From Eledone cirrhosa (taxonomy: Eukaryota): DNA of 64,000 nucleotides. The stretch spans positions 394,940,001 to 395,004,000 of the forward strand of contig OZ024740.1 in the NCBI GenBank assembly GCA_964016885.1, written 5' to 3'. Both the position numbers and the translations under genes were made by a program. Positions 5,510 through 63,269 of the stretch are shown here, in pieces (position 1 is the first letter of the stretch; each line of letters begins with the position of its first letter). The notes beneath the pieces are model-generated. The model saw nothing but the letters and a program-made list of their open reading frames with translations. It searched no databases and was not told the origin of the DNA.

Positions 5510-6057
5510 AATGGTTTCTTATATAGGCACAAGGCCAGCAATTTGGGGTGGGGAAGTCGATTAAATCGATCCAGTAGGTGACTGGTACTTTATTTTATCG
5601 ACCCCGTAAGGATGAAAGGCAAAGTTAACCTCGGCGGGATTTGAACTCAGAAAGTAGAGGGCCACAACTCTATGCTGCAAAGCATGTTGTCTGACGCTCT
5701 ACCGATACTGCCAATTCACCGCCCTAATAATTGTTTCTACTTTTGGTACAAAGCCAGCAATTATCCAGTGTATTACTGGTACTTTATTTTATCGACCCCG
5801 TAAGGATGAAAGGCAAAGTTAACCGCGGCGGGATTTGAACTCAGAATGGCAAGGGCCATAACTCTATGCGCCAAAGCATGGGGTCCGACCCTCTACCAAT
5901 ACTGCCAATCCAATCCGTCCTAATAATTGTTTCTACTTTTGGCACAAGGCAAGCAAATACCCAGTAGATTACTGGTACTTTATTTTATCGACCCCGTAAG
6001 GATGAAAGGCAAAGTTAACCTCGGTGGGATTTGAACTCAGAATGGCAAGGGCCGTAA
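5510..6057 (-). mobile_element. Head-to-tail cluster of three SINE family A copies
   Basis: Copies at ~5510-5725, 5727-5920 and 5922-6057 (the last is 5'-truncated). Confidence 0.9.
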
Positions 6058-6800: not shown

Positions 6801-7868
6801 TACTTAGTCCACTTATGTCGTTCTTGTTACTCATATGTTCAAATCTTACTAGAGTCAGCTTTATCATTTATAGTGAGATAGTTTTGATACTAGACTTTAA
6901 GCTGAGTTGATTCAATTGAAAATATACATCAACACATCTACAGATTTAATACTGTGTGTAAATGTAAGGAATCTATAAACATTGGTAGCTGCTTTATGAC
7001 CACGGATAATTTCATAAAATGCTTATTGTTTTAAACATTAGTGGAAGCCCGAACACGCTCGTGATATTGTTATATATTTTATCAATCGGCTATTGTTATC
7101 TAAAATGTTCCCTCCCAAAGCGATTATAATAAACCGCTAAACTATATTATTGTTGACGAAGATCGGCTTAAAATAACCAGTTAGAAATCATTATACAGGT
7201 TTTGGACATTGTGGTATTCAAATACGATCTTTTTTGTTTTGAGTTAAAAAAAACTCTGAAGTCAACTTCGTCGTCATCCTTCCGGGATTTGCTACATTTT
7301 AAGATTTGCTACATTTAAGATTATCCATGATTATAAGCAGTTTCCACGGCATCAGTAATATACGGAGGTCGATTTGGTCACGCATTCCTCTCCACTTTAA
7401 AAACAATCCTTGAATGCACGTCACGTAATAATGAATCCTTGGTTAAAATATGTAGCGTGACCTGGTTGTTCCGATGTTTAGCTCCCGATCGTAAGATCGT
7501 GGGTTCGATCCCCGTAGTGGGTGATGCTTTGTCTCCTTGACAAAAGCGCTTCATTTCATGTTATTCCAGTCCTCCTCAACTGAAAAAGGTGTAACAGTAG
7601 TAGCAGCTATGGTTTAAGCTTTCAATGTAAATAAACATCATTGTAGCCTCATTATTATTTTAAAATAGCGTGATCATGTCACTGCTATTCTTAACAATAA
7701 AGGGAGAAAACCATAAGCTAAAAGCTTATAGTTTTTATTTAAGCTTATGAACATCGGCTGATGAAGCTCATTTGCACACAGAGAAAAAGCTGACGGGCTC
7801 GAATTAATAAGCGGTAGTGATGTTCTAATGTAGCGTGATGGAGACGTGACCGGGATTGTATAATGAAT

Positions 7869-7931
<63 letters not shown>

Positions 7932-8364
7932 GTGTGTGCGTGTGCGCGCGTGTGTGTGTGTGTGTGCGTGTATTTGTGTGTGCGCGCGTGTGTGTATGTG
8001 TGCGTTTGTGTGTATATATAGCTGCCCGAAAGAAACTAAATGAGAGATTTCAATCTCGACTTAGTACTATATACTCTCCAAACTATATTAAATTAATCAG
8101 GTCACTTTTATCGTATGACACCGACAAGTGTATATAATATTGAACAGGTCAGGTCAGAAGTTCAAATCTATAGATAACTTTTTTTTTTATATTGCTGGTT
8201 ACAAAAGCTTACGTTGCCTCAGTTCACCTAGCAATTGACAATCACTTATATACCCTCTGTCGAAGAAGTCCTCCAATTGTTTGGATGAGCCTTGACATTA
8301 AATATGTATCCTGGTTGTTGTGACAAGCCGCATGTGATGACTGTTCAATATAAAAGCCTAGCAT

Positions 8365-8530
8365 AGAGTTACGTCCCTTTATGATCTGATTTCAAATCCC
8401 GCCGAAGTTAACTTTGCCTTCCATCCTTACGTGGTCAATAAAATAAAGTACCAGTCACTCACTGGGGTCGATTTAATCCACTTTCCCCTCTCCCAAAATT
8501 GCTGGCCTTGTGCCTATATAAGAAACCAAT
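8365..8530 (+). mobile_element. SINE family A, diverged
   Basis: B box remnant, central domain and tail. Confidence 0.75.
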
Positions 8531-13785: not shown

Positions 13786-13829
13786 ACCGTCCTGACGAAG
13801 GCCAGTTAAGCCTGAAATGCATAGACGGT
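13786..13829 (+). ncRNA. Minimal type I hammerhead ribozyme
   Basis: accgtc-CTGACGA-aggc(cagttaa)gcct-GAAA-tgca-TA-gacggt: perfect stems I and II, palindromic stem III (ATGCAT); predicted cleavage after 13823. Confidence 0.85.
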
Positions 13830-21429: not shown

Positions 21430-22099
21430 ATAATATCTAAACATAGGAATGACCCAGCAGATAGGCAAATCAGAGAGGCCAGTGAAATAGAAATTAGAAG
21501 ACCAAAGCTAAACAGAAAGAATGAGTGGAACAACAACAACACCCAAACAAACAACACTGACCTAAGAGAAGTATAAATAAGTAAATAAAATAAAATAAAA
21601 TAAGATAAATAAATACATACACAAGCACAATAACAACAAGCACATAAACACACACTAGTCACCCAGCAGACACAACACTATACACACTAGTCACACAGAA
21701 AACATGACACTATACACACACGCAAACGCATGCGCAAAGAAGACAAAATAAAATAAACAAACAAGCAAATAAATAAATAAATATATAAACAGACTGAATA
21801 AAAAATGGCGTAGACATACAACACAACAGGAGGAAAAAATATAACACCACTGACGATGTTGCTGATGTGCAACGAAAGATTTATGTAAATTATGTAAACT
21901 ATATATATGTGTTTGTGTCTATATTGTATCTGTATTATTTTTGACCGTCGGTCAGTCAATGGCAACATTGAGGACCGAGTAAGTTAGATCGCACATATAA
22001 AAGACAGCGAGAAGCGAAAACCAACCAAACAGTGAGTGTGTTCTATTATTAATTCTGGCAATATTACACAAATATGACCCTCCCCAAGTATAACAATAT
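21430..22099 (+). repeat. Upstream pseudo-LTR (ORF 3' end + UTR + first codons)
   Basis: Near-identical to 25592-26258 with scattered substitutions. Confidence 0.95.
21845..21885 (+). ncRNA. Atypical hammerhead-like motif in the Penelope pLTR (also 26002-26042, 29120-29160)
   Basis: CTGACGA-t-gttgc(6 nt)gcaac-GAAA-gatt-TA-tg; core and stem II conserved in three copies, but proximal stem I is only ~2 bp. Confidence 0.5.
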
Positions 22100-25000
22100 T
22101 TGTTTCGACACACGATTTCATATAAAAAACCTCGCTAAACTAATTCATCGCCGCTACGGCATTAGCTTGTGCCAAGCTGAAAGGTTATTGAAAGACACTG
22201 TTTTCTGTTATATAAAAACTACAATAACAACAGAACAAATCCGCTTCTTAAAACACTGTGTTTCCTCCAAAACATACACAACAAACATATCAAAACAAGT
22301 AAATAATTTATTATTGAACAAAACACAAGCCGAACGACTAAAACACACAATAACAGTTAATATGAAAAGAACAACATATACAAAAGTCAACGCACTCTAC
22401 AGACAGAAACGCATTAACGGTAAGGAAATCCGAAATCTCATCACAGCAAACGAGAGAGATAACTTCATGAGCGTCATCCGACGTGAAACGAAATATGCTC
22501 GAAACGAATGCAATAGGCATTTCAAGAAGAAATTAGAATGGATGAATAAGAAAAAACTACGAGAAAGGAAAACCGAATATTCTCAAAAATACCCAGATAA
22601 CATCGACAATATCCGTATGACTGATGTAAAACTACCGGAAGAATTTACCAATGACCACACAGTAAATATCTATGGGAACACTTTAATCAGTGAACAAGAA
22701 CAACAAATCCTACGGTTACCACCCAAATTTGCCATCTACAAAAAGATTAACCCTATGGAGTGCAAAACGGAGCTGGAAAAGTGTTTCACAAAAATACGTT
22801 GGAATGCAAAGGTAAACAACAACAACAACAATAATAACGGTAGTAGTAATATAAACAATAACTCTGGGTATAGAAATAACAGCCATAACAATAACAATGG
22901 CAGGAAAGTGAGAAATAGTGATAATGGTAATAATACTAGCGATAGACAGAACAACAACAACCACAATAATAATAATAATAGAAACATTAACCACAGACAC
23001 AGCAACAGCGACCACAGTAGTAATAACGGTAACAATACGAACAACAACAACAATAACCACAGTGGTAATAATGGAAATAGTACATGTAGCAACCACAGTG
23101 GTAATAATGGAAATAGTACATGTAGCAACATCAACAAAAACAAGAAACATAATAATAGTAACAACCACAATAGTAGAAATAACAGTAACAACAACAACAA
23201 TAACGGTGAAGTAAACAACAATACATCTAGCAATCATAACAATAATAATAATGCTAATGATAGAAACAACAACAACCACCCTGATAACAACAATAGCAAC
23301 ACACACAACTATGACGATAGATATAATGACAACCCCTTAGAGAAACTATTTTTCAACCCAGCTGACAAAACATATAAGATGGGTAATATCTATCCTACGA
23401 GGTTACCCTTTAATAAAAGAGTTTGCATACCACAGCAAATAGATGACGAGACAGAGGCACAGTTCACCATAGCTAGAAATAAGATTAGACAAGTAGTAGA
23501 CAGGTATACTAAGAGACAGAGCAGACCAGAGGCCCAACAACTTGGGAGGAAACCTGTAGAAGGCTTGGTTAGCCTCAAGCAGCGCACAAAGGATGGTGAG
23601 GTAGTGTGTCTACCCACAGATAAGTCTGGTAGGATGTCAATAGATAGCATGCCGAACTACATCGAGGCTATGCAACCCACATCACCAACACGAGCGAAGT
23701 TGCACAACAAACACACGATGGGAGAGAAAAAATCCTCAACGCTCACATGATGATGTGGACTGACATCCTAAGGCCAAGCAGACGCACTGCCAACAACTTC
23801 CAGGCGTCTAACAATGGCATACCACCCTTGTATGGGCTCCGCAAAGACCACAAGACAGTCGACGACCCGACAACAGGACCACCAACAAGACCCGTATGCG
23901 GAGCTAATATAGCTAGCAACTACAGGATCTCCTACTTCCTCTCAATGGTTATACGCCCCATAATCAAGATGTCCCCAGATGTATGTGAAAGTACAGAGGA
24001 CCTCCTCAGCAGAATCAGTGAGTGCAACAAAAACAGGAGCCTATCCAACTGCATAATAGGCAGCATGGATGTGGTGTCACTGTACCCATCCATTAACATT
24101 GATTTTGCTGTGAAAAGATGTGTGGAGATGATCATTGAGAGTGAGGTGGAGTTCTGCGACGTCGACACAGACGAACTGGGCCTCCTACTTAGACTTACCT
24201 ACGACACTGACTACCTAGACAGCCATGACCTTAGATGTTTCTGCCCTAGTAGACCTATAAGAGGTAGACCCCCCACCATAACCTCAATGGCAAAAAAGAC
24301 TCCCATGGGAAGGTGGATTGGGTGGACCAAAGCTATACGGACCCCCCAAAACAATGATCAGGTAAGAAAAATGGTCGCACATGCAATAGGGGCTAGTATC
24401 AAAACTACCCTAAAGGGCCACATATTTAAGTTCAATGAGAAAATCTACACCCAAAATGAGGGAGCAGCCATCGGCGTCAGCATAGCTGGTGATGTTGCCA
24501 ACCTTTTCATGGTATGGTGGGAAAGGAGACTTAAAGATCTCCTTAATGAAAGCTCCATAGACCTCATCATGTACTCTCGTTATGTAGACGATATCAATAT
24601 AGTTATAAGAACACCCCCACTAGAGAGCACTAACAAGTTTGATTTAGAACGTAGCACGATGGAAAGCATCCAGCAGATGGCTAATTCCATACACCAGAGT
24701 ATAACTGTAACTATCGACTTCCCCTCCAAACACCCTAACAATAGACTACCTGTATTAGACACAGAACTCTGGATTAACACTATAGACGAGAGAGCCCAAA
24801 TTCTCCACTCACACTATGCTAAACCCATGGCCTCCAAATACCTGATACTCAAAAACTCAGCAATGTCCAGTAGTGCTAAGTTTAATATTCTGATCGCAGA
24901 TTTGGTACGAGTGATGAAGAATGTGTCCAGCATGTGCGACCCAATAGAAATGGAAAGACACATCCAACACTTCATCAACCGCATGCAGTTCTCTGGCTAC

Positions 25001-25738
25001 AACCAAAGAGACAGAGTCAGAGTATACGAAGGAGCCATGGAAAAGTATAAGACCCTCATAGAACTGGACATGAAAGGAATTTGCCCATTATACAGGAGCA
25101 AATCATGGAATAGCTTAAATAGGGCTAGACATAATATAGGGAAGGCCACATCATGGTACGACAACCAGAGATATCAGAGTGTCATGTTTGTGGACGCCAC
25201 CCCTGGAGGGAAATTAGCTAACCAGTGTAGAAAGGCCCTGAGAAAGACCCACTTAAAAATAAAGGTGGTAGAAAAGCCAGGAACCACCATAAAATCCCTG
25301 ATCAGCAAAACCTACCCTTTTAAGAAAACCCACTGTACCAATAGGAAATGTATCATATGCAAGGTGAACCCCCGGATAAACTGTAAAACTAGAAACGTAG
25401 TCTATAGCATAAGATGTACAGAGGGTACTTGCAGAAACATGACAACAACATACATAGGCGAAACAGCTCATAGCATAGGTGAAAGGATAGACCAACACTG
25501 GGGGGAACTAAAAGGACGAAAAAACGGATCAGTACTATACGAACATGCTAGACAACAACATGACGGTAACATAGACAACATAGAAATTAGAATAATATCT
25601 AAACATAGGAATGACCCAGCAGATAGGCAAATCAGAGAGGCCAGTGAAATAAAAATTAGAAGACCAAAGCTAAACAGAAAGAATGAGTGGAACAACAACA
25701 ACACCCAAACAAACAACACTGACCTAAGAGAAGTATAA
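22074..25738 (+). pseudogene. Penelope polyprotein (~1220 aa: N-terminal domain, Asn-rich tract, RT, Cys-rich linker, GIY-YIG endonuclease) split by one frameshift near 23678
   Basis: TDKSG motif; PLYGLRKDHK, TRPVC, SMDVVSLYPSI, GAAIGVSIAG, RYVDD, LPVLD; CxxxxCxxC...NVVYSIRC...YIGET...REA...LN. One added base near 23678 joins the two track ORFs (MQP-H-ITNTSEV...ILNAHMMMW). Confidence 0.88.
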
Positions 25739-26258
25739 ATAAGTAAATAAAATAAAATAAGATAAATAAATACATACACAAGCACAATAACAACAAGCAC
25801 ATAAACACACACTAGTCACCCAGCAGACATAACATTATACACACTAGTCACACGGCAAACATGACACTATACACACACGCAAACGCATGCGCAAAGAAGA
25901 CAAAATAAAATAAACAAACAAGCAAATAAATAAATAAATATATAGACAGACTGAATAAAAAATGGCGTAGACATACAACACAACAGGAGGAAAAAATATA
26001 ACACCACTGACGATGTTGCAGATGTGCAACGAAAGATTTATGTAAATTATGTAAACTATATATATATGTGTTTGTGTCTATATTGTATCCGTATTATTTT
26101 TGACCGTCGGTCAGTCAATGGCAACATTGAGGACCGATTAAGTTAGATCGCAGATATAAAAGACAGCGAGAAGCGAAAACCAACCAAACAGTGAGTGTGT
26201 TCTGTTATTAATTCTGGCAATATTACACAAATATGACCCTCCCCAAGTATAACAATAT
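25592..26258 (+). repeat. Downstream pseudo-LTR ending in ATGACCCTCCCCAAGTATAACAATAT then (AT)n
   Basis: Direct repeat of 21430-22099. Confidence 0.95.
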
Positions 26259-26379
26259 ATATATATATATATATATAAAAGTTTACATATAAATATATAT
26301 ACATACATATACATATACATGTTTTGCAACTGGTCAATTTGTGGCTCAATGAAAAATTAATAAATTAAACAATCAGAGG

Positions 26380-33051: not shown

Positions 33052-36000
33052 ATGGCCAATATAAGAGTTGGATGTGTGAATGTACGCGGCCCCGGGATGC
33101 CCTGCAAACAGGGCAAACTCTTAAACGACCTCAGGTCGCACAGTATGGATGTAGTAGCCATTTGCGAGTCCAGGATCCACAGCGAGCGACAGCTGGCCCC
33201 CATCTTCAATGACTTTGAGATATACGCATCTCTCTGTAGACCGGGGGTGGGGGCGGGGTTGCCGTTTCGCTGCGGAAACACCTGGGCCTCGTAACACAGA
33301 CGGTACATCTGGACCCGGAGGGTCGACTGGTGGTCCTAGACGTTGACGGTAGTGAAGGTGGAGCCTTCAGGCTGGTGGCCGCATATGCCCCATCCGGGAC
33401 ACCGCGGCCAGACTTCTTCAAACGTCTAGAAACTTTTTTGGGAACGTCCCGCTCCTTGCATTTAGTGGGGGACTGGAATGGAATCCTAGATGCACGTTGG
33501 GACTATGTGGGAGCATGTCCCGATGAAGGAGGGTTAAAGCTTCAAACAGTTAATCGGCCGATTTGAACTGGCCGATAGATATCGACTAGATTTTCCGACT
33601 GTGCCACTGTGGACGTGGACTAATCGCGGTGGAACATCTAGATCGTACCTAGATAGGGTTCTAGTTAGATATAAGGATAGGGACATGTTAAGCTGTCCGC
33701 AAATGTTCATGGTTGCCTATTCAGATCTCAAACTAGTGATCTGCATGGTCCACCTCGATAGAACCCATAGACAAGGACCCGGCTACTGGAAGCTGAACTT
33801 GTCGTTACCGACATGCAAAGCCTACAGTAGACGGATTAGCACTTTAGTTAAACAGCACTTGACAGGGCCATTGTCAACAACAGATGGTGGTACCCTCTCA
33901 AGAAGGCAGTTAGATTACACTCGTTAGTTTTTAGTAAAGAATTAGCGTTAGATAGAAATAGAACCGAGAAAGAACTGGTAGATAAAGTAGAAGAGGCAAT
34001 TAGAAGTGGCAACGTAGCTAGCGTGCTAGCAACGAGGACGGCCTTGGACCAGTTCTTCGACGCAAAGAATGAGGGCTGCGTTGTCAGAAGCAAAATACGT
34101 GCTCTGGGAAACGAGGGAGCCAAAGCTGTTAGCTGGGCCCGAGTGACGGAGGCAAAAAGTGGCAACAAGTCCACGATTCGGTCTTTGAAGGACCTAGACA
34201 GACGCGTGATACGTGAGCCGAAGCAGATGTGTGCGGCCTTTCAGCGGCACTTTGCTCAACTGTTCGGGCAGGGCGGCGCGCCGGGAGGGGCTATGGATTT
34301 CGGTCCATACCTCGACGGCTTACCGCGACTCTCGGACAGCGAGGCAAAGTTCTGCGAAAAGCCAATTTCAGCCGCTGATATAGGGGACGCGCTGAGCCAA
34401 TGCGGCAAACGCAAATCTCCAGGTCTCGATGGTCTACCCTACGAATTTTACGTAGCAATGCCGGACTTATTCTGCGGTCTCCTGGAAGCGGTCTACTGCA
34501 ACTGGCAACAGAACGGGAGAATTCCCAGTTCTGTGACTGGGGGCGTAGTTACACTAGTCAGGAAGGACGAGAATAAGGGGGATGACATAGCCAACTTCAG
34601 GCCCATAACTCTGCTAAACACAGAGTTACAGATTTTGGCCAAGGTGTTCGCAAAGAGTCTGGCGCTTGTCGTCGAGAACCTGGTGGGAGAAGCGCAGACA
34701 TGCGCAATCCCGACCAGGTCCATACACGACAACCTCCACCTCATGCGATACATCATAGAGAGGGTAGGGTGTAAACCTGTCTTCGGTGGGGCCCTGATCA
34801 ACTTGGATAAGTCTAAGGCTTTCGATAGGGTTGACCATTGTTACCTGGATGCTGTGCTCGAGGCGGCAGGCTTTGGACCCGTGTTCAGGGGCTGGATTGC
34901 TGCAATGCACAACAGCAACATCTGCTCAAGGGTTAAGGTGAACGGTTACCTCTCGGAGCCTTTCCATATCACGCGATCCATTCGACAGGGATGCCCTCTC
35001 TCCTTCATTCTGTACGTACTGACTCTCGAGCCACTACTGCGGAAGTTGAAGCTATTACAGGGCATCCCTCTGGAACCGGGACTGCGGAAAGCATCGACGT
35101 GACAGTAATGGTGTCGAGCGCCTCTCAAATCGAGGAAGTCGGCACCTTACTGAAGGAATACGAAAGGTTTACAGGAGCGAAGCTGAACCGGTACAAGTCC
35201 ATCGGTTTGCAACTCGGATCGTGGAGAGGCAAACCGATGCCTTCCGATGGCGTCGTCGGACGCTGGACGGAAGGACCAGTAAAGCTGCTCGGGGTCTGGT
35301 TTGGTCCGGACCTCCAGGTGGAGAAGAACCGGAACGAGGTGTCGGCCAAGGTGTTTGCACTCACCCAGAAGTGGGCCGAGTGCAAACTATCCTTGAAAGG
35401 TCGAGCGGAGGTGGCGAACACTTTTATAGCGTCCGCCATCTACTACCGCTTGACCGTCGTGCGTTGTACAGCCAAAACGCTCACCAAAATGGAGCGCTCG
35501 CTCTTCCAATTCCTTTGGAAGAGGCGGGCTCCTTTGGTGAGAAGATCCATCTGCTGCCAACACCCTCCCAAACGGAGGGCTGGGGATGTCGTGGCTGACG
35601 ATGCGCAAACACGCGCTCAAGCTGCGGCATCTCTACGAATTCCTCACCGGACCACCGGTGTGGGCCCCATTCGTGAAGCGAGCTTTCCCACGACTCGTCT
35701 CGCTGACCGAGCTGCAGTCTTGGGTCAAGCAAAGACCGAGAAAAATGGGCGACTGGCACATAGAATGTGCTCAGGTGCTCACAGCCCTCTGGCAGGCGGA
35801 CCCGGCGATCAGTGGAGACTCCACTTTGTCATTCTATAGAGGGCTGATCCGCAGCAAGTGCGACGACGGGCTCGGTGAAACTCTGGGCGTAGAGGAAGAC
35901 GAACTGGCCAGTCTGTTCGGTAGGACCTTCCGCTCGGGACCGATGGACAACTTCCAAAAGTCCCTGGCCTGGCAGTGCTACCGAGGAGCTCTACCAGTTC

Positions 36001-36439
36001 GAGACAAGCTCTACAGACATGGGCGCCCGAGGTGCGTGCGAGACGAAGAAGAGTCGCGCACGCATTCATACACTGCCAGGGCGTCACCGACCTGTGGGGC
36101 TATGTAGAACGACTATTGTCGCGGGTGGGACCAATCCGGTTGACCACCGAGTCCATTGTCATGATCAAACCGCCACCTTTCTTCAAAAACGAAGGAGAGA
36201 CGGTTTTCCTTTGTTTGATAGCTATGGCGAAAGAGGTTGTATGGTGGACAAGGTTGAAAGGGCTGAGGTCGGAAACCTTTCTCTCCGGCCAACAACTGAT
36301 TCTTTTTTTCAAATACCACTTTGGAAGAAGAATCAGGATGGAGAGAGAGGTGCTGTACCCCAGCAAGTTTTATGAAAGGTGGGTAAAAGTGGCGAGAATG
36401 GCCCGAGTGAATGGGCCTTCTCTCTATATCAGCTTGTAG
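33052..36439 (+). pseudogene. LINE ORF2 (APE endonuclease + reverse transcriptase), multiple frameshifts, YADD motif deleted
   Basis: NVRG, GDWN, SYLDRV, GPGYWKLN, KSPGLDGLP, NFRPITLLN, KAFDRVDH, RQGCPLS; comparison with the 58-61 kb copy shows loss of AVSAYAD near 35092. Confidence 0.92.
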
Positions 36440-36719
36440 GTTGAAGAAAAAGAGGAGGAGAGGAAAAGAGTACAAACTCTTCGTACTCCTGGAGATGAGG
36501 GTTACACATTTTTTTTCGGGGTTATGTGTTTCCCATATGTAATGTCTCCCCCTATTGGGGAAATTCGACTAATTTTTAAATTACATTTGTGATAATATTT
36601 TACACGTTTTTATTGTATGTAAACTTCAACCTTTGTATTTGTCTCCTTTTTTCCTTCTTTTGTGCCCCTGTGGCTAATAAAGAAACATATATTACTTAAT
36701 GGGCGTCTATATTAAATCT

Positions 36720-41036: not shown

Positions 41037-41218
41037 AATTGTTTCTACTCTTGGCACAAGGCCAGCAATTACTCAGTGTATTACTGGTACTTTATTTTAT
41101 CGACCCCGTAAGGATGAAAGGCAAAGTTAACCTCGGCGGGATTTGAACTCAGAATGGCAAGGGCCGTAACTCTATGCGTCAAAGCATGGCGTCCGACCTT
41201 CTACCGATACTGCCAATC
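41037..41218 (-). mobile_element. SINE family A
   Basis: Full motif set. Confidence 0.9.
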
Positions 41219-41620
41219 AATGACCTAATTAACGTAACCCTATATATCCCCAAAGAGACCGGACGGTTACGACTGGAATTACTTTGATTATAATTCTGCT
41301 TGGTCAGGTTTAACCTGGTCCTAAACCACAGCAGTCTCCTGAGTTCCAAATATTGTGCTAGAATGTTACACCACCAAAATCTATAGAGAGGAACAATAAC
41401 TGTCGTAACTCTGCTCTGTCTTTCATTGTAACTTTGGCGTATACCAACCAATTGGAAAACATCTTCGCCAGGACTGAAGGACTAATGAGGAATTGCAAGT
41501 ATATAAAAATTATACCCCTAATGGGGAGCATCTGTTTTGAGAAAAATAAGGAATCTTTAATTTTACAAATTCATAGGTATTACATTACTGTTTAGCTATT
41601 AAACTATTAAAGCTTAAACC

Positions 41621-41662
<42 letters not shown>

Positions 41663-42101
41663 AGTAAGTAAGTTAATTTTTATAATTTTCTTATTTTACG
41701 TCTTTCATATAATTGTTCTGCATCCCCTTGCATTGAACCACAAAGTTACTAAGACATAACCTCTATATTTGCTAGCATAGGCATGCATCTGTATATATAT
41801 GTTGGTAGATATACTAATTCTTTATAATTATCTCCAAATTATTTTGTGGAGCAAAAATTTGCCATAACAGCTACTATAGTTCATAGTAATAGTTCGGCTA
41901 CTGTCTTCTTAACACCCCACTCCTCACTGATTAACCTCGTTGTTACGTGATTGATTCTTTTGAATTTGCCACCGACCAAGTAGGCAGTGATTTTTTCAAT
42001 GTCTTGGAATATAGTCCCCGCTTGCTTTTTTCCATCCACTGAATTATTTTTGTATAAATTCCCCGTGTCCACGCATCGCCTGGGAACTTAGCTGAGAATT
42101 G

Positions 42102-42185
42102 ACTTCCTGATGACGAAAGGCATTCTCCATGTTGTTCCATTCGGAAACCATGTTTATTCCCTTTCAGAAACTAATTAGTTGGAGT
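42102..42185 (+). ncRNA. Type I hammerhead ribozyme
   Basis: acttc-CTGATGA-cgaaagg...cctttca-GAAA-ctaattag-TT-ggagt; palindromic ACTAATTAGT; cleavage predicted after 42180. Confidence 0.82.
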
Positions 42186-42631
42186 GAAATTTTAGTAAGT
42201 AAGTTAATTTTTATAATTTTCTTACTTTACGTCTTTCATATAATTGTTCTGCATCCCCTTGCATTGAACCACAAAGTTACTAAGACAAAACCTATATATT
42301 TGCTAGCATAGGTATGCATCTGTATATATATGTTGGTAATATACTAATTCTTTATAATTATCTCCAAATTATTTTGTTGAGCAAAAATTTGCCATAACTG
42401 CTACTATAGTTCATAGTAATAATTCGGCTACTGACTTCTTAACACCCCACTCCTCACTGATTAACCTCGTTGCCACGTGATTGATTCTTTTGAATTTGCC
42501 ACCGACCAAGTAGGCAGTGATTTTTTCAATGTCTTGGAATATAGTCCTCGCTTGCTTTTATCCATCCACTGAATTATTTTTGTATAAGTTCCCTGTGTCC
42601 ACGCATCGCCTGTGAACTTAGCTGAGAATTG

Positions 42632-42714
42632 ACTTCCTGATGACGACAGGCATCTCCATGTTGTTCCATTCGGAAACCATGTTTATTCCCTTTCAGAAAC
42701 TAATTAGTTGGAGT
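42632..42714 (+). ncRNA. Type I hammerhead ribozyme, second copy
   Basis: Same as 42102-42185 with one stem II mismatch; cleavage predicted after 42709. Confidence 0.78.
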
Positions 42715-42762
42715 GAAATTTTAGTAAGTAAGTTAATTTTTATAATTTTCTTATTTTACGTC

Positions 42763-42808
<46 letters not shown>

Positions 42809-45800
42809 CATTTTGGATTGGGAAACTTTTTCAGTTGAAAGTTTCAAAACTGAATGCGAACGAAGTGTTCTCTATTCTTGCTCTAGTGGTCGCACTACAT
42901 GCTAGAATAGTAACCACATCTCCCACAAATTCTAATTCATCGTCTTAAAAAGGACATATTTGAACGTGTAGTCATGGTTTCACTGTGTCTATAACACAAA
43001 TAAATAAATAAATCGATGCCCATGAGTTTTCTCGTACACAGCTGACGTGGGATTAACAACAATATCAGGAATACTAAAGCCTACTGCACAGTAGAAGGAA
43101 TGCATACTCTGTACGCTGCACTACGTAATGTGGTCCTCAATTATTTATTTACCATATTTCTAATGAAAGCTACTGCTTATAATTTTGAAATAATTTTGAA
43201 AATAATGAAGAATTTGCAAACATTTAGTAATATAACTTTCCATTATTTAGCTGATGTTTGACACAACATAACAAAGGTTATGATTGACTCACAAAACTAA
43301 TGTGACGTGAGTTCATAAGAGCTGTATGCCTCATAAGGTTACGACAGAAGATTCATCGTTTAATCTGTCTATAATTATAGAGTAAAATGGTTAAATATCA
43401 TTTTTTAAAGATAGGTTTTTTATACTTTATGCATATTGTACACCAATATATTTGTTTTAAATTGCCGCCAGTAAAAACAAAAGTTAGTAACTATTGCTTT
43501 ACGCGGTCGTCTGATATGTTAGAAAAAGCAGCAAAATATTCCTTATGGGATATACACATTAAAGAATGTAATCTCTGATATACAAATAGACTGATTATAG
43601 CTGAAATAATTTCATCTTAGGTATGCTCCAGAATTGACCATCCAGCGTTATAACCTCGGGCAATATTTTGCGGTATTTACACTGACACCTTGCTTTCTGA
43701 TTTCAAATCTCGTCAAGATCAACCTTTTATTTCATTCTTCTGGGTTGATAAACCAGTACCAGTTTAGAGTAGTTGACTGCTGAAATCCCCAGAGCATCGG
43801 AGGGGGTGCCAAAAGGTATTTATTCTTTGCGATCTGCGTTCAAAGTCACATAGCCCAGTTGTATGGCATACTTTACGTGTCACATAGTTTAACATCGCAA
43901 TATACCTTTTTTTGTGTCTTTAGGCGACTCCAATATTTTACAAGTATTCAGATCAGGTTTCCATAATTTAAGAATATGTTATTTCCCCATTTCCACCAAT
44001 CTCGAAAGCTCTGGAAAAATATAGGGTCTTGGATGCTGCCTTTCTTTCTGACTCAGTGAAATAAAATGCCACCGGGTAAATGCTTTTGCTTGTATTTTTG
44101 CAATATCAGTTGATACATTTAACAATATTTGTATTTTTAAATTCTAAAGGAAAGAAGGAAAGCTATAGTCAGATTAAACTGAGGAAACAGTTTCCGTTGG
44201 TCTTTCCATAGTTGGTACTATGTACCAGTAACAATTGCTTGCAGAAACGTCCTCAGGAGATTGAATTTGAACTCAGAAAACACAGAGCTGGAACAGATAC
44301 TGCAATTTATCCTGTACGATACTTTAACAGTCCCACCAATTCACCGCTTCTTATTGGTATTTTATTTATCGAACACAAAAAGCAGATGGCCGGAAACAAA
44401 TACCGAGGATTTTAAACCTACGCTCTAAGACTCTGCTAATTTCCTGCTATAAAAACAAATACAAATCTAACGTCGGAGCTTTCTTAATTAATCGTTATAA
44501 TTGTAAGAAACGATGTTAATTGCTGCAACTTACTAATTGTATAAATGGCACATCTATTAAAACTGTAATTTAGGCAAAGTCGACTTCATATGGGCGTTGG
44601 ATTCCAGACTAATTCTTCCTCCATTATTATTATTATTGTTGGTTTGCATTGACGAAATATCTTTATTTCGGGTTTCGTAGATTGGGATTATTAAGTGGTT
44701 TTAAGTGTATTACTTTATGTGCGTATGATTGCTAAACGAAAGTATATGTATAATGCTCTTTTGAGGCAAAAGTCATATATTTAAACTAATTTTTATTTCC
44801 ACTTGGTTCGGCTTCTGTCGTTTGTTTAACATTATGGTGGCGAAGCTGGGATACAGCTACTAAAAGCAAAATCGAAATATCTTCGTAGATATCGCAAAAG
44901 GAAAAATACATATGAACACGACTATTCCGTACAAACTCACAGACCTTTAGAAAGATAGAAATATTGAACTTTTAAGCATCGAAGGTGTCTTCAATTCCTC
45001 GCTTGATAATAACAGCAACAATATCAATGACAAAAACAACCGTAGCACTATTTCATACACTTTCATACGCTTTGTCATGCGGAAATGAAAAATAAGAAGA
45101 GTTTTGTCCATATTCCTTCTAATGAAGTTTTTAATATGGACTAAGCCCAAACCCAGAAGGACCAATGACGAAATTGCGTCAGCAAACTCTGTGTCTTCTT
45201 ACACGAAGAATTTATTCAGAACTAAGAAATGAGAAAATCAGGGGTAGTGGTAATGGTACCAACCCCTGGCTTGTCTTTACCTTTCGGGATTAGTACTGAC
45301 GGTTAATAAGCGTAAGGGCCACGAAAAATGACATACGAACCGGAAGAGTCAGTATAGACTTACAAATCCCTATAAACCCCCACCCCCTTAAGAACTCAGG
45401 GCAATTCAGGAGCTATGCTCCGTCATGAGTGCAAAAACTAAAACAAACCATGGAGACTTACGGTGTAGGGCAGATGGCCCAGCTATTATATTGTGGCAGC
45501 AATACGCATTTAAATGATTACTGCAACGAAAATTTGAGAAAAAAAATAATGACCGCGACAACCACAAGATCCGATGACTGCTATTCCAGCTGTACCTTAG
45601 ACTGCAGCTCTGAAATTGGCGGTGATTGTCTTGTTCTTGGTCTCAGAAACTGACCAGAAAATCTAAGGGGCCCCTACCCTTTCATCAGCAGTGACAGTAA
45701 AGAAGAAATAAAAGAAAAAAGTGGTGAACAACAGCAACAACAACAAACAGTACTGACTCTAACTCTACAAGGAGTAAAACATAGCCACATAGCGGTGAGA

Positions 45801-55096: not shown

Positions 55097-55485
55097 ATAA
55101 TTGTTTCTACTTTTGCAACAAGGCCAGCAATCACCCAGTCAGTTCATTACTGGTACTTTATTTTATCGACCCCGTAAGGAAGAAAGGCAAAGTTAACCTC
55201 GGCAGGATTTGAACTCAGTCCGTAAAAGGACGTAACTCTGTGCTGCAAAGCATGGCGTCCGACCCTCTACCAATACTGCCAATACACGACCCTTTTTTGT
55301 TTCTACTTTTGGCACAAAGCCAGCAATTATCCCAGTGTATTACTGGTACTTTATTTTATCGACCCCGGAAGGATGAAAGGCAAAGTTAACCTCGGCGGGA
55401 TTTGAACTCAGACCATACAGGGCCGTAACTCATTGCTGCAAAGCATGGCCTCTGACCCTCTACCGATACTGCCAATCCACCGCCA
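55097..55485 (-). mobile_element. Tandem dimer of SINE family A
   Basis: Two copies bracketed by one direct repeat tgcaactgaaaaataat. Confidence 0.9.
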
Positions 55486-58061: not shown

Positions 58062-60888
58062 TATGTTTCTTTTATTTGCCACCAGGGCATCAAAAGTGGG
58101 ACAAGTACAATGGGGGAGTTTACAAAACAAGGCGTCCTCAATAAGGAGGAGGCAATAACAATATATAAAAATAAAATAAAATATAACAAAAAATAAAATT
58201 TATAACAAAGTCCTCAATAGAGAGGAGGCGCCTTGGGGGGTCGCACACACCCCCGAAAAAAGTGTACAACCCTTCTCCTCAGGAGCACAGAGAAGGGGTG
58301 CTCCCTTGGTCTTTAATCTTCCTCACCTATAGTCTGATGTAGAGTGAAGGCCCATTCACACGAGCCATTCTCGCCACTTTCACCCATCTTCCATAGAAAC
58401 GGCTGGGGTGCAGCACCTCTCTCTCCATCCTGATCCTTCTTCCGAAATGATATCGGAAGAAACGGACCAGTTGTTGGCCAGAGAGAAAGGTGTCTGACCT
58501 CAGTCCTTTCAGACGCGTCCACCATACAACCTCTTTGGCCATGGCTATTACGCACAGAAACACCGCCTCTCCTTCGTTTTTGAAGAGGGGAGGCGGCTTT
58601 ATCGTTACAATAGACTCGGTGGTCAACCGGATCGGTCCCACCCTTGACAGCAGTTGTTCGACATAGCCCCACAGACCGGCAATGCCCGAGCAGTGTACCA
58701 ATGCGTGTGCAACGGTTTCCTCGTCGCACACGCATCTGGGACAGATCTTTTTCGATGGGTCCCTTTCCCGGGCGCCCGTGTCTGTAGAGCCTTTCTCGAA
58801 CGGGCAGAGCCCTTCTGTAGCATTGCCAGGCCAGGGACCTCTGGAAGTTATCCATGGGTCCCGGGCTGAATGTCCTACCGAACAGGTTGGCCAGTTCGTC
58901 TTCCTCCATGCCTAGGGCTTCTCCTAGGGCGTCGTCGCACCTGCTAACCACCAGCCCTCTATAGAATGACGAGGTGGATTCTCCACTGACAGCTGGGTCC
59001 GCCTGCCAGAGAGCCGTGAGCGCCTGGGCACACTCGGTGTGCCAGGCGCCCAGTTTTCTCGGTCTTTGCTTGACCCAGGATTGCAACTCGGTGAGTGAGA
59101 CGAGTCTGGGAATGGCTCGCCTCACAAACGGGGCCCACACCGGTTGACCGGAGAGGAATACCTGAAGGTGCCGTAGCCTTAATGCGTGTTTACGTATCAT
59201 TAGCCACGGCATCCCCAGCCCTCCTTTCGAAGGGTGTTGACAGCAGATGGATCTCCTCACCATAGGAGCCCGCTTCTTCCAAAGGAATTGGAAGAGTGCG
59301 CGCTCCATTTTGGCGAGCGTTTCCCTTGGGCAAGGCACAACGGTCAGGCGGTAGTAGATGACGGACGCTATATAAGTGTTCGCCACCTCCGCCCGACCTT
59401 TCAGGGACAGTTTGCACTCGGCCCACTTCTGGGTCAGTGCAAACACCCTGTTCGTCACCTCACCCCAGTTCTTCTCCACCTGGAGGTCTGGTCCGAACCA
59501 GACCCCGAGCAACTTCACCGGGCCCTCTGTCCAGCGCCCGACGACGCCATCGGAGGGCATCGATCTGCCCCTCCACGTGCCGAGTTGCAGACCGATCGAC
59601 TTGTCCCGGTTCAGCTTAGCCCCTGTAAACCTTTCGTACTCCTCCAGTAAGGTGCCGATCGCCCCGATTTCCAAGGCCGTCGACACCATTACTGTTACGT
59701 CATCGGCGTAGGCTGACACCGCTTTCCGCAATCCCGGTTCCAACGGGATGCCCTGCAACAACTCCAACTTCCGCAGCAGTGGCTCTAGAGTCATTACATA
59801 CAGAAGGGAGGAGAGAGGGCACCCCTGTCGGATGGACCGCGCGATTTCGAACGGCTCTGAGAGGTAGCCGTTCACCTTGACCCTAGAGCAGATGCGGCTG
59901 CTGTGCATGGCATTGATCCAGCCCCTGAAAACGGGTCCGAAGCCTGCCGCCGCTAGCACCGCATCCAGGTAACCATGGTCGACCCTATCGAATGCCTTAG
60001 ATTGATCCAAGTTGATCAGGGCCCCACCAAAGCCGGGTTCGTTCCCAACCCTCTCTATGATGTATCGCATGAGGTGGAGGTTATCGTGGATGAACCTGGA
60101 CGGGATAGCACATGTCTGCGCATCTCCCACCAGGTTGCCCACGACAAGCGCCAACCTCTTTGCTAGCACCTTGGCCAAAATCTGTAACTCTGTATTTAGC
60201 AGAGTTATGGGCCTGAAATTATTTATATCGTCCCCCTTGTTCTCGTCCTTCCTCACTAGCGTGACTACGCCCTTGGTCACAGCACAGGGAATTCTCCCGT
60301 TCTGTTGCCAGTTGCAGTAGACTGCCTCGAGGAGATCGGGGAACAAGTCTGGCATAGCTAGATATAGTTTGTATGGAAGACCATCGAGACCCGGGGATTT
60401 GCGTTTGCCGCATTGGCTCAGCATGTCCTCTATCTCAGCGGCTGAAATTGGCTCCTCGCAGGACTTCGCCTCCCTGTCCGAGAGACGCGGCAGGCCGTCG
60501 AGGTATGGACCGAAGTCCACGTCCCCAACCGGCCCCCCGCCCCTTCCGAACAATCCGGCAAAGTGCTTTTGAAAAGCCTCGCACATCTGCTTAGGTTCAA
60601 GGATCACCCGTCCATCCTGGTCTCGCAAAGACCGGATAGTGGATCTGCTCCCTCTTTTGGCTTCTGTCACGCGGGCCCAGCTAACAGCTTTGGTCCACTC
60701 GTTTCCCAGAGCACGTATTTTGCTTCGGACGATGCAGCCTTCGTGTTTCGCGTCGAAGAACTGGCCCAGGGCTGTTCTCGACGCTAGCACTCTGGCCACG
60801 TCGCCGCTTCTAATTGCCTCTTCCACACTATCTACCAACTCTCTTTCCTTCCTATTTCTATTGGAGGCTAACTCCTTACTAAATTCTA
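58062..60888 (-). mobile_element. Tx1/L1-clade LINE, 5'-truncated, young (RT intact, one frameshift near 58750)
   Basis: KSPGLDGLP, DQSKAFDRVDH, RQGCPLS, AYADD; C-terminal C..C...ETVAHALVHC; (GATA)n on both sides. Confidence 0.95.
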
Positions 60889-60891
60889 GAG

Positions 60892-60952
<61 letters not shown>

Positions 60953-60983
60953 TCCATAGATAGATAGATAGATAGATAGATAT

Positions 60984-62247
60984 CTTTCTTTATTTGCCAC
61001 AGGGGCGTACACAAATGGGACATTACAAGACGTGAAGGCGGGGGTTTTACATAAAAATAACTTTAACATTAATAAATAACAATAAACTATATATAATAAA
61101 ATAACAATTGAAATCCCCAACAGGGGGGAACATTACTGCAGGGTTGTTTTACACCCCGTGGATAGAACAACCCTCAACACCAGGAACACGTTTTATAGGT
61201 GTTCCTGTCTTCCCTCTGTGTATCTTCCTCAACCTACAGGTTTATATACAGAGAAGGCCCATTCACTCGGGCCATTTTCGCCACATTCACCCCCCTTTCA
61301 GCGAATTTACTGGGGTGTAGCACCTCTCTCTCCACTCTCACCTTCCTTCCTTCTGAAGTGATACTTAAAGAAGAGGATAAGTTGTTGTCCGGAGAGAAAG
61401 GTATTTGCCCTCAGTCCTTTTAACCTCGTCCACCATATTACCTCTTTCGCCATAGCCACCAGACAGAGGAAAACCGCCGCTCCTTCGTTCTTAAATGAAG
61501 GCGGCGGGGTGATCCTCACGATGGACTCGGCTGACAACTGGATGCGTCCCACACGTGACAACAGCTGTTCGACATAATTCCGCAGGTCGGTCTCTCCTGG
61601 GCACTGAACAATTGCATGCTGAACGGTTTCGAAGACCTGCTCGCATCTTAGACAGGTCCTTTTGGTAGAATCTCTGCCAGGGCCTCCGTGTCTGTAGATT
61701 TTGCCTCGAACCGGTAGAGCACCTCGGTAGCACTCCCAGGCCAGAGACCTCTGGAAGTTATCCATAGGCCCTGGACGGAAAGTCCTCCCGAACAGACTGG
61801 TCAGTTCGTCCTCCTCGATGCCTAGAGTTTCCCCGAGAACGTGGTCGCACTTATCCTCCACTAATCCCCTATAGAATGTCGAAGTGGAGTCTCCGCTGAT
61901 TGCCGTTTCCGCTTGGTAGAGGGCTGTGAGCGCCTGTAGGCACTCGAGGTGCCAGGCACCCATTTTCATTCTTCGCTTGACCCAGAACTGCAGCTCTGTT
62001 AGTGAGACGAGTTGTGGAAGAGCTTGTCTCACAAATGACAGCCACATCGGTTCACCGGTCAGGAATACCTGGAGATGACGTAGCCTCAGCGCATGTTTGC
62101 GCATCATCAGCCATGGCATGCCCAGCCCTCCGTTAGAAGGGTGTTGACAGCAGATGGATCTCCTCACCAATGGAGCCTGTTTCTTCCAGAAGAACTTGAA
62201 GAGTACGCGTTCCATTTTGGTAAGGTATTCGCGAGGGCAAGGCACGA
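60984..62247 (-). mobile_element. Tx1/L1-clade LINE, 5'-truncated, different subfamily
   Basis: GGLGMP, CLRCEQVFETVQHAIVQC, 3' UTR with aataaa; (GATA)n on both sides. Confidence 0.93.
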
Positions 62248-62329
<82 letters not shown>

Positions 62330-63269
62330 TGATTGATTGATTGATTGTTCGTCTGGTGTAGATAGCTTCATTCACGAGGAGACTTGAATTTAATCATGTT
62401 AGTTAATGAAATATTTGAGAATTTAAATAATGTTGATGTTGCTTGCAGTGATGAGTTGTTCTATTCTGAGGGGTATATTCTCAATTAGATTGATATGACT
62501 ATTCAAGTGCTTAATATATTGGACACGCACGCACACACACACGCTCTCACACACACACACAGACACATATACACTCACACACACTCTCACACACACCCTC
62601 ACATACACACACACGCTCACACACACTCACACACAAACACGCGCACAATGACGCAAACACACGCCTGCACACACACATACAGTCGATAACCATGTTCTAT
62701 AATGTGATGCAAGGACACAGCGTACAAAGGCCCGGGTATTTTCTGAAATCACAGAAAATATGTGCATCTGTTAAAGTGAGAAAGAGAGAAAGAGGGGGAT
62801 AGAGAGAGAGGGAGATTGGGGTTATCAGAAAAAAAAAAGAATATTATCCGTTGCCAACAGACAGGAAAATGTCTTTCCTCCCTCTGCCTAACTTGGAACA
62901 AAATCAGAATTGTTCTGCATGTCATAGCATTCGTCAACTTGTTTCCAGAAGTAAGCAATTCATTATCATTAAACATAAGCATTGGATGACGGTTTCGTAG
63001 TTTTTCATGGATTTCAAACATAACAGATTAATTGCATTACCATGCCTTTAGAACTTTCTCGATTCGGTAACGCTCCATACTAACATCCAATGATAAAAAC
63101 AAAAATAAACAAAAATAAGAAAAATAAAGAAAAAAATCAAATTTTCCTATAATCCCCGTTCTGAAAAAATTAAATACTGTTCAGGATACCTTTATCGACG
63201 CCCCATAACCTCTACTAATTCGCTATAGAACTGTAAAGATGTCCCATCTCCTCACTAACCTCACTGACC

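Follow-up and report, generated by a model that had tools for sequence, protein, structure and literature searches.

The window analysed here, a stretch of 64,000 nucleotides of Eledone cirrhosa contig OZ024740.1, carries at 41658-42771 a tandem array of 2.1 copies of a 529-nt unit embedded in (TA)n, which raises the question of what kind of insertion this is and how its two ends were made. The sequence-only reading had described the array as a ~530-nt retrozyme-like 2.1-mer with a 5' end made by ribozyme self-cleavage and a 3' end primed on (TA)n, and the unit length, copy number and limits given above, obtained from sequence and alignment, bear out its size. Taken together, the evidence makes us confident that the array was inserted as a copy of a tandem retroelement that encodes no protein, is present in high copy number and has a predicted hammerhead per unit. 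It is likely copied in trans by a Neptune-type Penelope-like element (PLE), which would supply the reverse transcriptase (RT) and GIY-YIG endonuclease.

Layout of the array and its predicted hammerheads

With the unit numbered from the first base 3' of the predicted cut (+1), alignment resolves the array on the forward strand into a 5'-truncated unit 1 (41658-42180, +9 to +529) which lacks the first 8 nt, a complete monomer running from cut to cut as unit 2 (42181-42709) and a terminal piece of 62 nt (42710-42771, +1 to +62). The terminal piece ends in CTTTCATATA, the first of two 3' ends found across the family and a putative priming site. The (TA)n target flanks, delineated by sequence and repeat scan, occupy 41623-41659 on the 5' side and 42767-42806 on the 3' side, and microhomology leaves both array ends ambiguous by 1-2 nt. 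The array thus starts at unit position +9 and closes with CATATA+(TA)n, in agreement with the earlier placement of its start about 8 nt 3' of the cleavage-equivalent position and of its end at 'catat' followed by (AT)n. The second family-wide 3' end and putative priming site (+176, TTCTTTATA, 42348-42356, forward strand) is read through in the window copy, likewise in unit 1 (41818-41826), and a long hairpin is predicted by folding just 5' of it, with approximate limits 42293-42346 on the same strand.

The two units differ at 16 sites (96.9% identity); they share two variants absent from 20 other young units and carry 7 and 9 private variants. The unit is non-coding and without LTRs, GC content is 33-34% in the 2-kb bins covering the array, and no ORF of at least 120 aa overlaps the array in any frame. 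As the unit profile had no match in the rest of the window below E 0.07, the array is unrelated to the other arrays there, as had been noticed. Among the other repeats of the window are one of ~195 nt, which occurs singly and as short tandems (5571-6057, 55101-55480 and about 41040-41220), which we take to resemble a SINE family, and broken LINE-like reverse transcriptase frames at 33850-36440 (+) and 58313-62371 (-), labelled from motifs by eye.

Each unit presents, in order, stem I ACUUC/GGAGU, CUGAUGA, an extra C, stem II GAAAGG/CCUUUC, an extra A, GAAA, stem III and GUU. The first hammerhead, of type I by its core motifs and covariation (42102-42185, forward strand, predicted cut after 42180), consists of stem I ACTTC/GGAGT (42102-06 and 42181-85), the core CTGATGA (42107-13), stem II GAAAGG/CCTTTC (42115-20 and 42160-65), GAAA (42167-70) and a palindromic stem III (42170-79). 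Stem II, which contains an inner hairpin, is about 55 nt in extent, and the C.A pair at its base is atypical. The second hammerhead (42632-42714, forward strand), located by sequence and alignment, has its CTGATGA at 42637 and GAAA at 42696, and a substitution at 42647 breaks one of its stem II pairs. The GUU cleavage triplets end at 42180 and 42709, which places the two predicted cuts 529 nt apart as the sequence-only reading had them, and the palindromic stem III that it pointed out, ACTAATTAGT, is present in both units.

Rfam returned no hammerhead at the gathering threshold in the whole window and no hammerhead model at E<=10 in 41600-42850, and folding of the isolated motif was no better than that of shuffles (z -0.6, -0.64 and +0.2), so the hammerhead call rests on core motifs and covariation. 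Across 44 copies, hand-picked for diversity among 108 distinct ones, 95.4% of cells are paired and both sides have changed in 8 of 21 pairs; slid controls give 38-46% pairing. The covariation score exceeds all 500 shuffles, with relatedness of the copies inflating such scores and the invariance of stem III being partly due to the selection pattern. One stem II pair occurs as UA in 26 copies, AU in 13, GC in 3 and CG in 1, another as GC in 29 and UA in 15, and the covariation of stems I and II extends over lineages that diverge by up to about 20%. As the swaps in these two stems are several and independent, the hammerhead is very likely a genuine structure, for which self-cleavage is predicted. 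Its long stem II means that a ribozyme family with ~9,000 genomic junction motifs escapes standard searches such as Rfam.

Other hammerhead-like sequences were encountered as well. Two more type I motifs with palindromic stem III and a 6-7-bp stem I lie in the window at 13792 (+) and 50910 (-). A different tandem repeat with a unit of about 459 nt and a hammerhead stem II spanning about 50 nt occupies 7510-8419 of locus L182, and similar long-stem cores were seen in L200 near 2042 and L159 near 3190; these long-stem cores are probably further retrozyme families overlooked by standard descriptors.

Dispersed copies, two 3' ends and head-to-head doubles

A search of the 3.0-Gb genome with the 529-nt unit gave 2480 candidates, 40 of which were scored and gave full-length matches, the best at 95-97% identity, on many contigs. 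The genome contains 9169 occurrences of the junction 22-mer against 0 of its reversed control, and the contigs of runs X1, X3 and X4 contain the tandem junction with 30 of 30 bins covered. Identity to the window unit spans 77 to 96% among 42 distinct complete units, from which it follows that several lineages exist, and the copies range from monomer to multimer with arms of up to about four whole units. The proposal of a retrozyme-like dispersed element is upheld by these counts, and a unique local duplication, the alternative set against it, is excluded by the dispersed copies across many contigs. The wider notion that the array is satellite DNA or a tandem duplication of local origin, its ribozyme-like motif being due to chance, could appeal to the missing Rfam match and to two arrays (L007 and L023) which may have gained internal units by recent local duplication. 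As an origin of the family it is refuted by the thousands of dispersed copies with fixed 3' ends and by the compensatory stem changes, and we give it practically no credence.

Copies terminate at +62 or +176 (+171 in some lineages) and are followed by (TA)n. Genome-wide, exact 3'-end sites with TA next number 1797 for +62 and 1228 for +176, with 0 in the controls, and the recurrence of the +62 end supports the priming of the 3' end on (TA)n that had been suggested for the window copy. Insertions were sampled by genome position from 92 of the first 100 +62 sites listed and the first 30 of the +176 sites; 13 loci were dropped (11 duplicates of counted insertions and 2 cut off) and one triplicated site was counted once, which left 107 insertions with 175 arms from the first ~150 Mb of one contig. 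The window copy has one arm only, of the +62 type and 2.1 units long. Of the 107 sampled insertions, 76 have a second arm in inverted, head-to-head orientation, and the classifiable doubles combine +62 with +171/176 in 67 of 68 and +62 with +62 in the remaining one, 8 others being unclassed or cut off. Of 88 insertions anchored at +62, the inverted arm ends at +171/176 in 55 and at +62 in 1, while 6 are other or cut off and 26 are single; the 19 anchored at +176 comprise 12 with a +62 partner, 0 with a +176 partner, 2 other and 5 single. L007, from the score-selected set, is a +62/+62 double. Single arms have TA within 25 nt of the 5' end too in 18 of 31 cases. The pairing of +62 with +176 in inverted arms is the 'tail' and inversion signature of PLEs. 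The sequence-only reading had overlooked the +176 priming site, the doubles and the connection to Penelope elements.

When each arm was compared against 26-118 other arms, 19 of 40 doubles had arms that were mutually closest relatives, a share that rises to 13 of 15 where the overlap is at least 270 nt; in 21 of 40 some other arm was equally close or closer. The strict pairing of ends and the mutual relatedness of the arms suggest that doubles would arise from one RNA primed twice. Gene conversion between the arms later on may alternatively account for their similarity. L1-type twin priming was rejected, as it would place the 5' end of one arm where the other arm has its 3' end, which is not the case. 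As a separate observation, L062, L063, L068 and L071 carry an identical +458 to +176 arm, and the three of them with a common flank look like one duplicated insertion.

As all the structural signatures are those of PLE ends, the unit could be the pLTR of an autonomous PLE family and the copies its short 5'-truncated insertions. Such an origin appears improbable to us, since 0 of 175 arms leave the unit for shared ORF-bearing sequence, arms continue into further whole units, up to about four, and the array is overlapped by no frame of the length given above.

The long 3' end carries a further footprint. Runs of (CT)n, 4 to about 30 copies long, stand between the element and (TA)n in L033, L034, L038, L047, L126, L130, L141, L143 and others, and they are confined to this end, to termini and to lineages with CUCU in the template. 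In these lineages internal passes have 2 CT (22 cases) or 3 (1 case) and 15 termini have 4-24; by hand tally, termini of this kind number about 21. All 20 doubles with at least 4 CT begin with TA on the other side, and an AG run comes next in 2 of the 20. The simplest reading is that a short template stretch was re-copied at initiation, with later microsatellite growth as its rival.

5' ends and the template

Arms end in +1 to +25 in 37 of 175 cases against 11.9 expected under a constant stopping rate, and in +4 to +14 in 25 of 175 against 5.3, a peak matched by 0 of 300 simulated ones; with one arm per insertion the former count is 19 of 107 against 8.2. Among first-pass +176 arms, the stops per 25 nt before the cut are 3/74, 5/71, 0/66, 3/66 and 5/63; the value then rises to 15/58 just past the cut and falls to 0/43 over the following 25 nt. 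In 13 of the 68 doubles, both arms stop between -3 and +30 (odds ratio 8, p 4e-4). Across the genome, 82 symmetric joins were counted at the short palindrome 3' of the cut against 6 at the 12-bp palindrome 5' of it, and the AAATTTT palindrome region (+7 to +14; 42187-42194, forward strand) is their commonest centre in other copies. The stop counts and the symmetric joins after the cut show that paired cDNAs often share a barrier at the 3' edge of the ribozyme.

The excess is uneven across classes of arms. It is weak in arms of at least 250 nt (6/87, p about 0.05), the drop past the cut is mild in +62 arms (16/97, then 8/81), and single arms end in +1 to +25 in 5 of 31 cases only. Single TA-joined ends were tallied by hand: the first 100 of 233 matches, representing 29 places, have 14 at +7/+8, 5 at +5/+6, 7 at -2 to +4, 2 farther upstream and 1 other join, and the first 100 of 269 matches have 37 places at about -16 to -40. 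In C1 and C2 combined, 15 places fall at -9 to +8 and 32 at about -16 to -40, with differing anchors and +9 to +25 outside the range covered. Within -11 to +1, the hand tally finds a modest peak, with 8 of 24 at +1 or ambiguous between -1 and +1. Single TA-joined ends follow TA microhomology; they are not in excess past the cut, and upstream of it they are no rarer. For this reason the +9 end of the window copy is by itself not diagnostic.

The derivation of the 5' end from self-cleavage is supported in part. The distribution of 5' ends across genomic copies, by which it was to be judged, has a family-wide enrichment just after the cut that is clear in doubles and none for single TA-joined ends, and stalling of the RT at a helix over +1 to +6 also fits. 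The peak lies at +6 to +8, not at +1, and there a predicted GGAGUG/CACUCC helix begins; its CACTCC strand (42448-42453, forward strand) is predicted by folding to pair with GGAGUG (+1 to +6) in competition with stem I of the hammerhead. Run-off from a self-cleaved template is the likeliest cause of the pile-up, by our estimate somewhat better than an even bet, and RT stalling is a weaker though sizeable contender. Initiation of transcription at an internal promoter near the ribozyme boundary would be a third cause, and promoter-like words in the unit, presumably E-box-like and CCAAT-like, do resemble those in a genomic PLE 3' region. The next cut is about 200-240 nt downstream of these words, and it would take a coincidence for a start site to match the cleavage site, so we hold this cause to be unlikely. 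Secondary clusters of 5' ends at unit positions 351-375 (11/175) and 476-500 (18/175) may reflect hairpins or a start site.

At +13 to +23 of the unit (window 42193-42203), one copy of the 4-nt repeat of AGTAAGTAAGT is dropped in about a fifth to a third of passes. The loss is found in every lineage and varies between passes of one insertion; it is a slip hot spot of the RT adjoining the peak.

At least one intact cut site is crossed by 124 of 175 arms and two or more by 28, and uncut or re-ligated RNA must therefore have been the main template. Successive passes within one arm differ by 2.5% on average and belong to one lineage throughout; in L097 they differ by 1.7%, against 10.4% to the nearest other. 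Either a circle or a homogeneous source array would account for this uniformity. As no mosaic arms were seen, the RT is unlikely to have jumped at random between monomer templates of different lineages. L007 and L023 have near-identical internal units with private variants absent from the terminal +1 to +62 piece, for which later local duplication would fit better. The circRNA junction read proposed earlier was rejected as a test; it cannot discriminate, because the same junction sits in genomic tandem at each of the 22-mer occurrences counted above (9169).

According to the published retrozyme model, the template would be mainly a circular monomer copied by rolling-circle reverse transcription, with the 5' pile-up resulting from RT stalling and palindrome joining. 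The frequent crossing of intact cut sites and the low divergence between passes without lineage mixing favour it, and the recurrent 4-nt slip counts on the same side. As circles, 6 of 6 units fold better than shuffles (z -3.2 to -6.5, 20 shuffles each) with GGAGUG:CACUCC paired, and with a median arm of 248 nt the persistence of the family would need some lengthening step. However, one circle would not give the private variants missing from the terminal piece in L007 and L023, some 5' ends lie exactly at +1, within the helix at which the RT should stall, and the longer stem II gives a weak stop only (p 0.08-0.09). A mainly circular template is hence a possibility to which we attach less than even weight, and run-off from cleaved templates in a minority of passes remains our preferred account of the pile-up.

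Candidate helper, proposed mechanism and known systems

GIY-YIG matches in the genome amount to 10,596 candidates, 150 of which were scored. PLEs with RT, Cys linker and GIY-YIG are present in the genome, with a 938-aa ORF in L181, and the candidate helpers would be Neptune-type by their Cys motif between RT and endonuclease, as read without a tree against the pertinent sections of PMC8557442. In two Neptune-type families, too, copies run into (TA)n from two pyrimidine-rich ATA points, with a spacing, judged by eye, of about 60 and 38 nt, and the copies of one family are 96-98% alike, an age range like that of the young unit lineage. No autonomous element homologous to the unit was found in 50 GIY-YIG loci (of the 10,596 candidates) and the PLE of the window itself, hence the helper can be proposed as a class, not named as an individual. 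Matches to the unit profile at these 50 GIY-YIG loci occur in L168 and L189 only, where they are unrelated neighbouring insertions of the unit. In one case (L051) a PLE 3' UTR abuts unit position 341 without intervening TA, an arrangement that a template switch would produce.

The PLE of the window, near-complete with two pLTRs and both ends in (TA)n, lies at 21450-26260 (+). It has an Asn-rich N-terminal frame (22053-23750), a frame with RT plus GIY-YIG-like sequence (23648-25738) and its own hammerhead-like cores near 21850 and 26007, and its sequence is unrelated to the 529-nt unit. Neptune-type pLTRs (L181, L182, L189, L190, L192; L187, L197) carry a hammerhead-like motif with UUGAAAA replacing CUGANGA, which by our reading would be a U3/A8-type swap, and the second Neptune-type family has GCAA where GAAA is expected.

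We propose that a PLE enzyme would cut a (TA)n run and that the DNA ends would prime on UAUA at two sites inside an RNA longer than one unit, both sites often being used on one RNA. The two cDNAs would then be joined at their far ends by microhomology. Most passes would read through uncut ribozymes and produce tandem arms, and a minority would stop just after the cut, most likely on templates self-cleaved there. More tentatively, and with less than even odds, a broader scheme can be put forward in which one RNA would be bound by a PLE protein dimer and primed at two fixed sites, 114 nt apart, by the two ends of a broken (TA)n run. Cleavage by the ribozyme would determine in vivo the 5' limit shared by the two cDNAs, and the telomerase-related RT would add new (CT)n by copying a 4-nt template stretch repeatedly at its start. 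If this were true, the family would be a thousands-deep natural record of how PLE inverted doubles form, of the role of the PLE hammerhead and of telomerase-like repeat addition seeding microsatellites. Its predictions are countable, namely priming at +62 and +176 on (TA)n, strict end pairing, a cDNA stop after the cut and CT addition, and they are testable with a 530-700-nt RNA and a candidate helper protein of the same genome.

The family combines features of two known classes. With non-LTR retrozymes it shares a type I hammerhead per unit, a short non-coding low-GC tandem, dispersed copies and a unit predicted to be self-paired, and with non-autonomous PLEs inverted head-to-head partial tandems, a tail with two 3' ends and a microsatellite target. 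It differs from autonomous PLEs by having no RT/GIY-YIG ORF, and no sampled arm leads into an ORF. Membership among the LTR retrozymes of plants, which have type III hammerheads in LTRs and a 4-bp target duplication, was rejected, since type I topology, tandem units and TA flanks are found instead. We class the family as both a non-LTR retrozyme and a non-autonomous PLE, a known kind with unusually informative insertion footprints. A literature search, including cephalopods together with hammerhead and retrozyme topics, yielded no description of the family or its footprints among the papers listed; the words 'retrozyme' and 'ribozyme' occur 0 times in PMC13282606. The family may already be catalogued in Repbase or Dfam as an unclassified or Penelope repeat.

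The metazoan non-LTR retrozymes, as described in the main accounts of PMC7229834 and 10.64898/2026.07.22.740005, are similar in unit, being protein-free AT-rich tandems whose hammerhead is of type I and whose helix III is short and palindromic, and likewise have thousands of copies, a structured unit and a proposed mobilisation by PLEs. The 529-nt unit exceeds the 170-400 nt given in PMC7229834 and falls inside the 51-972 bp of 10.64898/2026.07.22.740005, and the present family differs by its ~55-nt stem II with inner hairpin and C.A base. What mobilises animal retrozymes and how they are primed are matters of hypothesis in these accounts, with priming left open, and the latter source reports 8 of 9 Xenopus dimers without in vitro cleavage. 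The minimal hammerheads of PLEs, as set out in the portion of PMC4209133 concerned with them, resemble the ribozyme of this family, but in the latter G12 is preceded by an extra A, and helix II is branched and much longer.

The structural parts of PMC8557442 and PMC3846280 describe EN+ Neptune PLEs with 5' truncation, partial tandems, an inverted 5'-truncated head-to-head copy, a one-arm tail, microsatellite targeting and palindromes at inverted junctions, all in common with the present family; partial tandems, inverted copies, tail and microsatellite bias of PLEs are set out in PMC8557442. In contrast, the unit has no ORF, and its tail is about 110-114 nt instead of 30-40 nt. The Poseidon element PAc of Anolis, in the experiments related in PMC11167929, has two internal RT starts 3' of the cut, extension of both strands and uncut RNA as a main template in common with this family, and its two starts equal the PLE tail. 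In vitro, the ribozyme could be dispensed with there, and none of the reads started at the cut. Priming of PAc takes place without homology to the DNA that was cut, whereas both sites here end in ATA matching (TA)n, and those experiments give no sign of cut RNA being used, whereas here the 5' ends pile up past the cut. The function of the PLE hammerhead and the origin of inverted structures are stated as open in the discussions of PMC8557442 and PMC11167929. The PLE link for retrozymes has already been proposed in print and the kind is known; the retrozyme papers, in the arguments cited above, base the link on co-occurrence and pLTR homology, whereas here it is argued from the insertion ends.
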